DNA of 64,000 nucleotides. It comes from Lama glama (lineage: Eukaryota). Under the pieces are notes generated by a model, which saw only the letters and a list, made by a program, of their open reading frames with translations, made no database searches and was not told the DNA's origin. The stretch spans positions 33,046,001 to 33,110,000 of the forward strand of contig CM052824.1 of assembly GCA_028534125.1 (NCBI GenBank), written 5' to 3'. The translations under genes and the position numbers were made by a program. Positions 46,250 through 58,200 of the stretch are shown here, piece by piece (position 1 is the first letter of the stretch; each line of letters opens with the position of its first letter).

Positions 46250-49200
46250 TCAACGGATGCCTTGGTGGATGAGGCTGCTTTTGGCTGCATTGGCCTTTTC
46301 CCGCTCCCGCCGCCGTGCAGGGTCCAACTCAAAGCAGCGCCACAGCCGCAGGGTCTCATCTGCTGCTGCTGATGCCACTGTAGCTCCATCTGGGCTCATG
46401 GTCAGACTTAGGACCCGGGCTGTGTGACCTGGGGCACAACAGGGGGAAAAGTGAGAGCAGTACCTATGAAGGTAGATACCTGTAGCCCTCCAGGTCTGAA
46501 AGCTGCCTAGCTTTTTTGGTTTTTGGTTTTTTACGACAGCTTTATTGAGATAATTAACAATTCACATACTACAAAATTCAGCCTTTTAAAACATACTATT
46601 CATTAGCTTTTAGTATACTCACGAGCTGTGCAAACATCATGACAGTAATTCTAGAACATTTTCATCACTGCATAAAGAAAGTCACTCCCTACTACTCTGC
46701 TCCCAGCCCCTAGCAACCACTAATGTTCTCTCTCCCTGCATTTGCTGCTTCTGGACATTTCATATAAATAGTCATACAATAAAGGTGGCCTTTTGTGTCT
46801 GGCTTCTGTCACTTAGCACCTACCTTTGAGCTCAGCNNNNNNNNNNNNNNNNNNNNNNNNNNNNNNNNNNNNNNNNNNNNNNNNNNNNNNNNNNNNNNNN
46901 NNNNNNNNNNNNNNNNNNNNNNNNNNNNNNNNNNNNNNNNNNNNNNNNNNNNNNNNNNNNNNNNNATGAGAGAGGGCCAGTGCCACTCAAATCAGAACCA
47001 AGTCCTCTCTGGTGTTAGGCACCCTGCCAGGTGCTATGGACTCAAACTTGAATGTTCGTCATCTTTACAAAAGCCTTTTGAGAGTTGTAACTGTTACCCA
47101 TTTTACAGACAAGGAACCAAACAGAAGGAAGTTCAGCAAGTAGCCTAAGATCACATGTAATTAAGTTAGTAGGTGAGAGAGCCAGGATTTGAACTCTTGC
47201 CCCAGAGCCCAAGTGTTGAGTGCAGGTTGCATGCATGAAGGTGGGAGGAGGGGAAGCCAGAGTGGTTGCAGACAGACCCTCCAGCAAGGGCCTCAAGTAT
47301 TCTGACAGATTTGGATTATACATGGAAGGTGACAAGGTACCATCACCAGGCTGAAGGGGGACAGTAACAGACCACCTGGATCAGTGCAGAGGACAGACTG
47401 GAAGAAACAGAGTGCTGAGACCAGTACTGTGGGAAGGAGGATGAGGCCGAGGGGAGGGGTGAATGATATTCTGAGGTAAAACTGATACATCTTGGTGACT
47501 AGGTGAGGAGGATGAAAGATTCAAGGTTTTTCAAATTTCTGAGTAGTGTCACTCTCAAAAAACGTAGGAGGAGGAACATGTTTCAGGGAGGCAAGGGGAA
47601 ATGACAAGCTTAATTTGGGATATATTAGGGTGGTGCCACCTATAGGACATGGGGTTAGAAATAAGCGGTCTGTGGACTGTTGGAAATAATGGGTCTGGAG
47701 CTCATGAGTGAGCGCTGAGTTAGCAGTTTGGAAATCATCAGGGTATAGAGTTGTGAAGCCACTGGAGGGGACATGGTTGCCCAGGAAGACTATATAGACT
47801 AGGAACACATCTGGGAGTGAGAGGCTGGAGTAAGGAGGACTACCTGGGAATGGGCATCCACAGCACTCAGACAGGCCCCAGAGCAGACATTCCAGATACG
47901 AATGTGTCGATCACTGGTGCCCCCTCCAGTTGCCAGGACATTGGACTGCCAGGGACACCAAGCTACAGCCTAGGTGGGAAAAAGGTGGGGTCAGCAGGTA
48001 CTAGAGTGAGACAAGGAGCTATGTAGGAGTTACAGATCAACCCAGTCCCATCCTACCATCCCATCTCCCCTTAATAGTCCCCAGGTTCTGGGTGAGAGTC
48101 TGCAGAGGCCCCAGCCCAGCCCCACTCTCACCTTGACAGCCCCTTGATGCTGGGTGAATGTCTGCAGAGGAACCCAGCCACCCTCTCCAGGAGCACTGGG
48201 CCACACGTTGACCAAATTATCATTGCCACCACTGGCTAAATGTCGTCCATCTGGGGCCCAGCGCAGCCCACACACTTCCTGGCTGTGGCCACTCAGTGTG
48301 GCCACATGGTGTTCTGCCACCCGAACGTCATGGTGGTGGATGTGGCCAGAGCGTGAGCCACTGCAGGAGGGAAGAGGGAATCAGGTTTTGTGGCAGTGCC
48401 AAATGCTGCCAGCAGCCAGAGTTAGAACTTTGGAAATCATCAGGGTATAGAGGTTCAGTTTGGAGGTGTACAGTCAGTCTGGGAAGAGTGAGCAAAAATC
48501 ACAGACTGATTTTGTAACAGACTAGCAAAATCCACTGACCTGGACAGGATATAGCTATTCCAACAGAGAGAGCCCACTCGGGCAGAATGACTGGTCATGT
48601 TTCGAAGTCGTTTCTGCTGTTGCACATCCCATAGCTACAGAGAGCGAAGACCATTAGGATCAGAGATTGGGATTTGGCATGACCATCCTCCCGCTGTGCC
48701 TGGGTCTGGGGGACAGGGGAGCTGCAGCACAGGGACAAGTCTCACCTGCACCTCAGCACTGCTGGTGCCCACAGCCAGGTAGTTGCCCTCTTTGATCCAG
48801 GATACAGAAGACACATAGTCCCCAGGCTGCTCCATTTGCAGCAGCTGCAGGATGTCACCAGAGCTGGCACTCCACAGGTACACACTGTTGTCCAATGCCA
48901 CAGCGAGTACATTCCCAGAGCTCCAATCCACAAGGTTCAGGTCTGCCAGAGGAGGAAGGGAAGCACATGAGCTACCTTGCTTGCCTAGTTCCTGAGCCCT
49001 CTTTCTCTATCTACTGGACAAGGGGAAGGCTGCACTCACAGTAGTCATTCCGGATTTCAGGGGCATCCAGGATCCGGTCTGGCAGGGAAGGAATGTAACG
49101 GCAGGTCTTCCTGCTAGAGCCGGGTGTGGCCTTCTGGCTATAGAGTACTTTCAGTCTGTTCTGGTAACCTGTGGCAACAGAGTGGGTCTAGACACTGGGA

Positions 49201-49966
49201 GAACTGACACCTCCCCCAGCTCCTCACCTGGAGGGCTGGATAAGCACCTTCCCTCCCCTCAGTCTTAGGTGCCAAGAGCAGACAGGCATCTCCCCTGAGC
49301 CGGGACGATGGAACAACATCTCCCTCCAAGAACTTTAGGTCTTACCCTCTGGGGCATTTTGTGGTTTCCCACTGAGCCGAAGGATCTTGGCTTCCTCTAC
49401 ATCAAAACCGTTCAGGTTCAGAGCCCAGGCTTTCTGATGTTCCTGGCACATAAGAGTGGTGGTGAGGCAAGCGGTGTTATCCAGATTACACAGACAGGTC
49501 CCCTGCCTTAAGCCCCTTTGGGACACATACCTTTTTGGTGGGCGTCTGGCTGTTTTCGGGCTGATTCTCCTTGCTCAGGAGGAAGCTGGCCACCTCCATC
49601 TGGGAAGCACTGCGATGGGGGATATAGCGGTCACCGCCAGGTTTGCTGGGAGTGGTCTGAATCTTGGAGCTGGATTTCCCTGGGGCGGGGAGAGGGAAAC
49701 CAGACAATCTGACCAGGCTCCCGTGGGAGGAGAAAGCATTCAGTCTTTCCCTCTCCCTCCCGGTGTCCCGCCGCACCCCACTGACCGGGAGTTCGGCCCG
49801 GGGTCCTGCCAGCGCTATGAGATCGGTTGGCGGCCCGCATGGGCGAGGGGACGGGCCCCGCGGCTTCCTTGGCTTTGCGCTGCCAGCGCGCTGGGGGTGC
49901 ATTGGGGATGGGTGTATCCAGCTGCAGCAACGAGTGCAGGTCACTCTCGAACACGAACTGGGCCAT
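46250..49966 (-). CDS. CDC20: Cell division cycle 20, APC/C coactivator (499 aa)
   Basis: Exons 49966-49786, 49679-49531, 49442-49346, 49168-49040, 48942-48746, 48634-48540, 48360-48132, 47969-47844, ~46941-46824 (mostly in N-gap; AELK-G end visible; 118 nt assumed), 46428-46250. Motifs: C-box DRYIPHR, KEN box, MAD2-interacting KILR, CRY box, WD40 repeats and C-terminal IR tail (HQGIR*). Confidence 0.98.
46520..46820 (-). mobile_element. L1M 3'-end fragment in the last intron of CDC20
   Basis: CAGCTTTATTGAGATAATT…TTTTAGTATA…CAACCACTAAT…TTCTGGACATTTCATATAAAT…GTCTGGCTTCT is characteristic of old L1 3' UTRs. Confidence 0.7.
46837..46965. other. Assembly gap (129 N) covering most of CDC20 exon 10
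   Basis: Run of N. Confidence 0.99.
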
Positions 49967-54730: not shown

Positions 54731-55234
54731 TATACTTAGAGAGACCTGAGCAGAGCCAGGAGAGAGAGTAATTATGCGAGCTATGGTAGGAGAGAATTTA
54801 AAGGAGAAATGGGTAGTCACCATGACAAATGCCAACAGAGAGATCAAATAAATTGAGGATTAACAAGATCCAATTGGATCTTTTTTTTTTCTCTATTGGA
54901 TCTTGCAGTTAGAAAGTCTGAGGAGTCTCATTAGCAGAGTGATAGTGGGAGGGATTAATTGAAGTAGTCTGAGGAGCAAATGGGAATAGGGAAATGGAGC
55001 CTTCTTTTCAGGGAGTTTGGCATTAAAGAGGAGAGAGAAAGGAGGTGAAAGTTACAGGATCTTAGTCAAATGAACCTTGCCTGAGGAGAGAAGGTCCTGG
55101 ATCTATGTCAGTGGCAGTACCGAAAGATCAGTGTTACAAAACCCAGCTAGGAGGATAGACAAGGGGGAGGGAAGTGGGGTCTGAGATGGTTGTGTTGTTG
55201 AGATAGGATGGGTAGGGAAGTTTAGAAGGAAGCT

Positions 55235-58200
55235 CTAGAGGGTTTGGATCTGTCCAGGGTACTGGGACCGAGGGGCCTGCCAACAGCTGAGAGGTAAGTA
55301 GGAATGGTTGGCGATGTGAGTAGTGCAGTAGGACCCCAGCTCAGCCACAGGTGGGCACACAGACAGGGGCATGGTCCCCAGGCAAGAAGGCTGCAATCCT
55401 CTGTAGTCCATCTGGGTTTGGGAGGAACATAGGGGCAAGGGAGTCTTCTCTGAGGTCTTAGGTAGAATTTCAAGGAGGCTGGGTTCCACTTCCTCATAGG
55501 CATCTGAGACTGCAGCCTTGGGCTGGGAGAAATGGAGGTTTGGATTAGAGCAGGTCCTGTGGGAGCAGGACCTGGACTGTGTAGGAAAGAGGGTTTGGCT
55601 GGAGGTGAGTTCTTGGGATGGTATGCTGGTGGGCAAGGGCCTTGGAAAAGTTGTGTAGTGGGGCAAAGATCCAGCTCCAGGCAGGGCTGGTGGTGGGGAC
55701 CTGGGAGGGGAGTGCACTCACCGGATTCAGGCCAGCAGTATCCCTAAGGTACTGGCCGAGGACCCGGTGCAGGTCTGGAAGTGAGGGCCACAGGGCATGC
55801 CTCAGGCTCCTTGAGAAGAAGAAAGAGAAGGAGACTGAGTTGTGGGAGTGAGTTGAGAGGAGGGATGAGAGTACTGAGGTGGGGCAGTGGGGGAGGTAGT
55901 GAGGTGAGGGAGTAAGGCTTGGAGAGGTAACAGTGTAGCCAAGGCAGTAAAGTAAGGTAGAGGAGCACAGGTGGAAGGGAAACCTTAGATGGGAGAGGGA
56001 AGTCAGTGATGGGGAGGTTCAAAAAAGGGGTTTTCCTATCCTCAAACATTCCTGCCTCAGGGCCTTTGCACTTGTATTCTCTGCTTGGAACACTTGATTT
56101 ATTCCCTCACTTCATTTAGGTTTCTGCTCAAATGTCATCCTGCCAGAGAGGCTTTCCTTGACTACCCTGGCTAAAATAGAACTGCCTCCCTTTCCCATTA
56201 CACTGTCTCCTGCTCTGATTTATTTTTCTTTATAGTACTTCACTTATTCTGTATTTATTATATTACTATATATATTAAACATACTAGAGTGTAAACTTCA
56301 TGAGAGCAAAGAGTTTGTCTATTTGCTCACTCTTGTATCTCCAGGATGTAGAAAAGTGTCTAGCCCATAATAGGTGCTCAAGAAATTAGTTGAATGAAGG
56401 AGTGAGGAGAACCAATAGAGCTTAACATTAAGTTGCTGAGGAAGGTGGTCTATCTGGGAAGAACATGAATTAAAGTATATTGGGGGAATCTCCAACTCAT
56501 ATTTCATATTTCCTCATGGAGAGACTTTAGCTGAACAATATTTTAGGCCTCTTCTGTGACCTCACTCCTATCTTTCCAGGGGAGGAGGAGTGATGTATCG
56601 TAAATGGGGAAAAGGAACTGAGTAAGCCTGTTTCCCCAACATTTTTTTGTTGTTGTTGGATCTGGCTCCCTGCATCAAGGCTACAGTCCAGTCTGCTCAT
56701 ACAGATGGGTGGATTAAAAAGCTCAAAGACATGTTCAAGGAGAGATGCGGGCACAGAATAGGGGCATCTCATCTAGCCTAGAGCCATTGAAAGAGGCCAC
56801 CTGGAGGAGCTGCCTTCTGAGCTGAGTCTTCAAAAAGCGAGAGATATTACCAATTGAAGGACTGAGGTGGCGTGGATTCTATCCTTTATGTTTATAACTT
56901 CCAATGACACTTCTCCTCAGCCTTAGTCTTCCCACCTAAACAAGTCATTCATTAGTAACATTTATTTAAGGGTGTGCTATTTGGCAGGCAAAGTGCTGAG
57001 GTTTTAAGGATGACCAGTAAGGCATGGGGAAGATATATAAAGAAATGAATGCAGTAAAATGCTATGGTACTATGAAAGAAGTCCGTACTGGGGCACAAAG
57101 AGAGCAGCCAATAGGGGAGGGTCAGGAAAGGTTTCCTAGGAGTTAGTGAAGAAAGTTATTTAAAGATAAATGGGTATTAGTCATCCAGGGAGGATATTCC
57201 TGGCAGAGGGGACCTTACGCGCAAAGGCACTGAGAAGTAAAACCGCTTGGCTTGTGGAGGAAATCACCAACAGTTTGGCATGGCTGATGCACAGGGTGGG
57301 AGGGTGGAAGTGCTGGGAGCGGCCAGATTTTGCACAGCCTTGTGTCTCATTCTAGAGTTTGGATTTTATCCTGGGGAGCTAATAATGAGATTTAAGGAGG
57401 TGGAGTGACAAGTTCACGTGTGCATTTCAGAAAGATTATTCTGGTGGCTCTGTGAGGCTAGGTTAGGGGAGAGAAGAGGCTCTGTTTCAGTGAATCAGGT
57501 AGTGCTTGTAGAGCTGGAGAAAGGGAGTCATTGTTTGAACGAGGTTCAGGAGGTGGAATGACCAGACCAGAGCAGACTGAGTAGGGGGGAGGGAGGCGCC
57601 TAAGTGTTCTGTCTTGGGTGACAGGTGGACAGTAACCTTGCTACTGGGATGAAGAGCCAGAAGGTGGGGCTATTTGAGGTGTCCAGTATAATGGGCTTGC
57701 TCAAGTGTAAGGAGGCGGTGTGACGCCACGGGATGGATGTAGGATTGTCCAGAGAGCGGGTGTCCCAGAGTGACCTGGGGATGCTCCTTTAGAGGACGCA
57801 GGCCCCACCGGACCGCAGCCCCGTCCCGCGCGTAGCTCTGAGAGGTACCTGTAGTGCTCAGGAAACTGCCACCTCAGCAGCAGCACGCCCAAGAGGGCGC
57901 TGAGGCCCAGCACCAAGAGCAGAGCGGTCACCAAGGAGATCCAGGCTGTGGGACAAAGTAAGTCAGACCTGGGCAGCCCCTGGCCGGAGCCCCGCCCCGA
58001 GGTCCGTCAGACCCCGCCCATGCCCCGCCCCTCGCCGTCCCGAGGCTCCGCGTAGGGTCTGCGCAGCCGCTGCCGGGTGGGGTCCGAGCCCCGCCCCTCG
58101 CTGCGCCGGCGCCCCTCCACTGGCGCAGGCGCAGACCGCCTTTGCCCCGACCCTGCCCTCACCGGTCTCAGACGAGGTCTCCACCCACGCTGGGTCTGAC

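Follow-up and report, generated by a model that had tools for sequence, protein, structure and literature searches.

The MPL tail of the llama is a laurasiatherian form extended beyond the human-type stop codon

The thrombopoietin receptor MPL of the llama (Lama glama) ends in a cytoplasmic tail 11 residues longer than its human counterpart and carries a tyrosine motif, YPGQ, within the added part. This tail is not camelid-specific, but common to every hoofed mammal, whale, bat, carnivore, pangolin and shrew sampled. Our preferred reading, to which we assign a probability of about 0.5, is that the camelid tail is the general laurasiatherian form, generated by one five-codon in-frame deletion which removed an ancestral stop codon, and that the tyrosine in the extension is a dispensable tuning site, not a replacement of human Y631.

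The window analysed comprises 64,000 nucleotides of the llama assembly GCA_028534125.1 (contig CM052824.1, positions 33,046,001 to 33,110,000 of the forward strand), to which all coordinates refer; MPL is encoded on its minus strand. All coding exons were located in the window and the adjoining 10 kb, the gene is the single match in the assembly and thus present in one copy, and its best camelid match over the whole length is the alpaca protein. The features of an MPL orthologue are all present, namely two cytokine-receptor modules, the transmembrane helix (exon 10, 57849..57945), the Box1 region (exon 11, 55722..55809, splice sites read from the sequence), Box2 and the NHSY tail. Exon 12, the last coding exon, extends over 55235..55522 with an AG acceptor at 55524-55523 and consists of 95 codons and a TAG stop. 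Translation of the minus strand places a Cys codon at the human Y631 column (55283..55285), the YPGQ motif (55250..55261) and the TAG (55235..55237) exactly where a sequence-only reading of this DNA had put them. Neighbouring MPL, CDC20-like exons at 46253-49740 (minus strand) match the second half, which we take to be CDC20, of a fused 978 aa gene model from Camelus ferus (P0159), and a model from the star-nosed mole (P0389) is similar; these MPL-CDC20-like records are probably annotation fusions.

An assembly or annotation error as the source of the tail, a possibility the sequence-only reading had itself raised, is effectively excluded and of negligible probability. The 95 residues of exon 12 match the MPL annotated for Camelus dromedarius at every position (100% identity), the same tail is found in the independent annotations of C. 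ferus/bactrianus and Vicugna pacos, and a homologous extension is present in 114 species. All 111 sampled words of 54900-55900 occur in 14 of the 24 public runs listed, 13 of these 14 being flagged as possible sources of this DNA; runs with a small share (X19-X24) were excluded from all claims. Five Logan-only proteins (P0122, P0271, P0272, P0380, P0109) span exons 9/10-12 unbroken and end in the extension, and as their source contigs measure 1.5-3.3 kb where the same exons lie kilobases apart in the genome, they most likely derive from spliced RNA. What speaks for an error is that no reads were placed over the tail itself, with a read depth of 0 over 55206-55335 in four of four runs, which may be an effect of filtering. 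The extension is most likely transcribed and is under coding-like constraint, the latter as measured on the protein level only. As to chance, YxxQ occurs in 199 of the 23,873 stop-free 13-codon windows of this stretch (0.8%), a post hoc figure. In the RNA-library run X19, two low-depth contigs with seven differing letters lie on the MPL 3' UTR at 54814-55192; they do not count as evidence of expression here.

The comparison across species started from 389 proteins and retained, for each species, one named protein with a complete tail. This left 198 placentals, of which 114 belong to Laurasiatheria, once isoforms and duplicates, models in which exon 12 was missing or cut, v-Mpl and proteins without a name had been set aside. 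The sample represents the matches listed, which leave out 29 of the 149 of one search and hold at most 15 members of large clusters. As species were picked for having the tail, the invariance of NHSYLPL is partly a selection effect. Models ending in CW, WQAP, WQVP or QQPC (P0068, P0101, P0178, P0313, P0347, P0352-P0354, P0379) were treated as cut off and omitted since fuller models of the same or a close species continue. The species tree was assumed and ancestral polarity assigned by parsimony. Marsupials are represented by one gene model (wombat), and tails of birds, reptiles, monotremes and tarsiers are absent from the sample. Two scans of metagenome contigs gave no mammalian MPL DNA, a search at 50% clustering gave 11 matches with none from outside placentals and two being unrelated repeat proteins, and a search of short proteins yielded placental-type fragments only.

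MPL has five tyrosines in its cytoplasmic part; Y631 is listed among these and has long been studied in human and mouse. The sequence-only reading had taken the llama Cys as a loss of Y631, and with it of YWQQ, for which YPGQ was recruited from untranslated sequence as compensation. Across the 198 placentals, the column holds Cys in 147, Tyr in 46 and Gly in 5 species. Tyr is restricted to simians (one platyrrhine and the catarrhines) and myomorph rodents (jerboa, mole-rat, cricetids, murids), Gly to pinnipeds, and Cys is found in Afrotheria, Xenarthra, tree shrew, colugos, strepsirrhines, lagomorphs, squirrels, hystricomorphs, pocket mouse and Laurasiatheria. With Cys at the root, three changes account for this distribution, as opposed to nine losses, never regained, if Tyr were ancestral; on this count YWQQ was not lost in the llama lineage, and a relocated site lacks its original in the ancestor. 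The single wombat model possesses Y626, but neither Y631 nor a downstream YxxQ, and is unalignable past YLP. As judged from these sequences, the llama lineage likely never had Y631, and the Y631 of human and mouse is likely a later acquisition, made once in simian primates and once, independently, in mouse-like rodents. In favour of compensation, Cys631 and the extension co-occur within Laurasiatheria, with YxxQ in 101 of 114 species. On the other hand, 29 of the 198 species possess Cys631 without an extension, and the 13 laurasiatherians that lost YxxQ show no reversion to Y631. Furthermore, there is little to compensate in vivo, as signalling is normal in mice with the Y631 equivalent mutated (Y604F), which still activate STAT3 (PMC11147766). 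A loss of Y631 followed by compensation is contradicted by this distribution of states and, with a very small probability, effectively excluded.

Several other positions of the tail show related behaviour. The African thicket rat (P0281) and the douc langur (P0214) have independently changed YWQQ to YWKQ, keeping Gln at +3. Cys/Tyr flips are frequent in the MPL tail; the column of human C560 by Box2 (55496-55498, minus strand) toggles between Tyr, Cys and Phe with 13 changes on the 198-species tree. At the column of human C616 (55328..55330), Tyr is found in 113 of 114 Laurasiatheria and both colugos, and Cys in 80 of the 82 others; Tyr616 changed once within Laurasiatheria, less often than the YPGQ Tyr, and both groups with Tyr616 end in IQTL. 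Laurasiatherian tails mostly contain six to seven cytoplasmic tyrosines, compared with five in most others.

In 123 species, comprising all 114 Laurasiatheria, two colugos and seven squirrels, the reading frame continues beyond the human stop; a stop closes it in 75 of the 198. Colugos, with Arg at the stop position on the protein level, and squirrels read through the same frame by a point change. The squirrel read-through tail reads WQQPCRLAPHSQYSGQI; five of its codons, the stop position among them, are missing from Laurasiatheria. The protein alignment with colugo and squirrel places the junction of the deletion (15 nt, size and breakpoints deduced from this comparison) at 55276..55277, in agreement with the proposal of the sequence-only reading that a short deletion joined WQ to downstream sequence; the 11 additional amino acids it counted stand as the net gain from 13 codons (55238..55276) whose sequence lies behind the stop in human-type MPL. 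Across the junction W-Q-x-P is kept, with Pro at the human P635 position (55271..55273) as in 197 of the 198 species.

Counted without weights, parsimony favours an ancestral stop with three steps over an ancestrally open frame with four to five. When the reopening of a stop is charged at twice the cost of creating one, the ancestrally open frame wins with 5 versus 6. This leads to a possible, though unlikely, history in which a colugo-like long tail with YxxQ was ancestral to placentals or Boreoeutheria, CGA became TGA about five times, the laurasiatherian deletion locked the tail in, and simians and myomorphs regained YxxQ by C631Y; compensation would then lie on the human and mouse side. 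The hypermutability of CpG is established, and the Arg of colugos at the stop position is one transition away from TGA; five open-to-stop steps suffice. The colugo extension also matches 11 of the 13 common laurasiatherian residues along with Tyr616, and the wombat frame continues far past this point. The colugo codon CGA is presumed from Arg, though, and the divergences between colugo and squirrel (about four changes) fit both histories by a rough estimate. Moreover, no stop is found before the Gln of YxxQ where 6.6 were expected; as such a truncation was never fixed in Laurasiatheria, five fixations elsewhere need explaining. Bolder and more doubtful still is the proposal that the distal YxxQ acts as a toggle, ancestral in a longer tail, removed in about five lineages at one CpG codon and rebuilt independently in human and mouse as Y631. 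If it were true, the textbook 'conserved' Y631 would result from repair by convergence, and the site conserved from the start would be that of the laurasiatherian tail.

Stop loss went a step further in Carnivora. The camelid TAG aligns with Gln in most carnivorans, where this second read-through adds about 35 residues that changed at 0.78 per column versus 0.38 for the carnivoran exon 12 core. The in-frame translation of the llama 3' UTR (55157..55234) resembles this extra tail, with 14 of 27 residues identical to fox in an ungapped alignment. The repeated loss of stops in colugos, squirrels and, as a second step, Carnivora shows that the C-terminus is permissive. The tail is short and likely disordered; a PDZ-ligand reading of its QTL end was dropped, as position -2 is Gln, against the consensus.

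With respect to constraint, the first 12 columns of the extension accumulated 33 changes in the 114 laurasiatherians, which equals 2.75 per column; the mature protein stands at 2.45 and the remainder of exon 12 at 2.06. Neutral simulations, calibrated with assumed neutral branch lengths, gave a mean of 102 changes (112 with a CpG effect; 75 and 53 at 70% and 50% scale), and none of 150 came as low as 33 in any setting. A control free of calibration compared camelid with carnivoran residues inside the extension and in the stretch that is UTR in camelids; identity amounted to 10/12 versus 14/27 for fox (p=0.06) and 11/12 versus 13/27 for cat (p=0.01), with p=0.003 for hyena, 0.06 for panda and 0.18 for badger, these species pairs not being independent and the seal row being invalid due to an indel. 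The extension hence evolves at an ordinary coding rate, whereby protein data cannot separate constraint on the protein from constraint on the RNA. Its invariant columns across Laurasiatheria are Pro631, Gly637 and Gln640 (camel numbering), of which Pro631, with no change in Laurasiatheria, falls exactly on human P635, where P635L impairs or destabilises MPL (PMC5600916). The block around the Y626 equivalent (camel residues 615-625; NHSY at 55298..55309) is likewise unchanged in all 114 species.

That the invariant residues are not the Tyr and Gln of the motif agrees with a further, improbable explanation, in which the tyrosine has no signalling role and the tail is kept for receptor stability, avoidance of a C-terminal degron or an overlapping RNA element. 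The younger carnivoran extension is slow as well (0.78 per column versus a neutral estimate of about 1.3), and stability is affected by the extreme C-terminus (PMC5600916). This explanation is opposed by the history of the tyrosine, which changed only twice, to Ser in pangolins and to Phe in eared seals and walrus, and never to its one-transition neighbours Cys or His. Two changes compare with about nine expected under neutrality (weakening to P=0.05-0.11 at lower calibration). The Gln of the motif was not significantly conserved in the neutral model with stops forbidden (P=0.09-0.63), with four changes against a protein mean of 2.45, namely to Glu in muntjacs and in Hipposideros, His in beluga and Pro in badger. 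Taken together, six events removed YxxQ from 13 of the 114 laurasiatherians. None of these 13 species regained Y631. A distal YxxQ is missing from 42 of the 198 species, 29 with a stop and 13 with an extension.

The motif has the form of a STAT3 docking site, a Tyr followed by Gln at +3 in the cytoplasmic part of a receptor. On the tree a distal Tyr was added five times, each time giving YxxQ, and Y631 and the extension occur together in none of the 198 species. This mutual exclusivity is accommodated by a rather doubtful scenario in which convergence produced a second YxxQ that docks STAT3 on five occasions, by three read-throughs and two Cys-to-Tyr changes, with a subtle benefit, for example in stress thrombopoiesis, and no prior loss. 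All 13 residues of the extension are the same in Sciurus and six marmotine squirrels, and in shrews, hedgehog and squirrels the tail ends one residue beyond YxxQ. Yet the three read-throughs are not independent draws, as they used one pre-existing stretch, and the two Tyr gains in stop lineages are too few for significance. Replacement of the Gln by Glu twice, by His and by Pro also counts against this scenario, and the YPGQ motif carries Pro at pY+1. A proline right after the phosphotyrosine is unfavourable for SH2 binding; a literature search on proline at pY+1 found no paper. YxxQ is described as the STAT3 docking motif of gp130 (PMC1963337), but STAT3 was activated normally in Y604F mice (PMC11147766).

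The published role of Y631 points the same way as the preferred reading of a dispensable site, though not throughout. In reviews, Y626 ranks as the primary phosphorylation site and Y631 as a secondary one (PMC8292222, PMC5374145, PMC8500957). For knock-in mice, PMC11147766 reports that only Y599 (=Y626) is required for platelets, for stem cells and for the activation of STAT3, STAT5 and MAPK, and that Y604F (=Y631F) leaves STAT activation normal, with Y604 a modest negative regulator in vivo. On the other hand, cell-line work, in the summary given by PMC4877759, linked STAT3 phosphorylation to both Y626 and Y631. According to the preferred reading, the deletion on the laurasiatherian stem that took out the ancestral stop would have been tolerated because Y626 was left intact and Pro restored at position 635, and the appended peptide would then have come under moderate constraint like the rest of the tail. 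The extension tyrosine may be phosphorylated by JAK2 and act as a mild modulator like mouse Y604, with STAT3/STAT5/MAPK output putatively running through Y626.

What counts for this reading is the frame open in 114 of 114 Laurasiatheria, the three-step ancestral stop, the Cys root together with the wombat model devoid of Y631, the Pro635 column (197/198), the coding rate of the extension, the weakly kept Gln at +3 and the mild mouse Y604F phenotype (PMC11147766). Against it count the 2:1 weighting of stops, the cell-line link of STAT3 to both tyrosines (as summarised in PMC4877759), a possible RNA-level constraint, the assumed neutral scale and the single marsupial model, unaligned past YLP. 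The word dispensable is challenged in particular by the clear constraint on the Tyr, the lack of stops before the Gln (6.6 expected), and the exclusivity of Y631 and extension along with the five YxxQ-giving events, both unexpected for a dispensable site. The effect on signalling or physiology is probably small.

The data indicate that human and mouse share Y631 through convergence and that most placentals are devoid of it, which fits the weak knock-in phenotype and cautions that identity between human and mouse is not proof of deep conservation. Dogs, pigs and cattle, used in platelet work, possess a different MPL tail with extra tyrosines. The locus offers a natural series for the origin of a docking site from untranslated sequence, with short Cys tails, short Tyr tails, three read-throughs and six motif losses, and it helps to place the human stop-loss variant X636W. 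The tail sequences are already contained in public annotation and stop-loss extension is a known process; a search of the open-access literature, supplements aside, gave no paper dealing with the extension in Laurasiatheria or with an independent origin of Y631.

Among known systems, the MPL annotated for other laurasiatherians (Vicugna pacos XP_006200407.1, Bos taurus NP_001179592.1) has the same exon 12 tail, identical in the case of alpaca, and these records differ from the present account not in the tail but in carrying no functional or evolutionary reading. With human and mouse MPL (Y626/Y631 = mouse Y599/Y604), the llama receptor shares NHSYLPL, W-Q-x-P and a second distal Tyr with Gln at +3; this second Tyr, however, lies 13 residues after Y626 as opposed to 5, has Pro at +1 and originates from read-through, and column 631 holds Cys. 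The human stop-loss X636W (X636WX12, +12 residues; PMC7716329, PMC8421373) is a read-through behind the same stop and equals the squirrel extension in length (1+12 residues), but it is a rare point variant which retains the five codons deleted in Laurasiatheria; its basal STAT5 activity is reported as wild-type-like (PMC8421373). The gp130-type YxxQ sites likewise place a Gln three residues after a Tyr in the tail of a cytokine receptor; while conservation of a gp130 site reaches from fish to mammals and includes pY+1 (PMC12014907), the laurasiatherian MPL motif changed its Gln four times and its Tyr twice.
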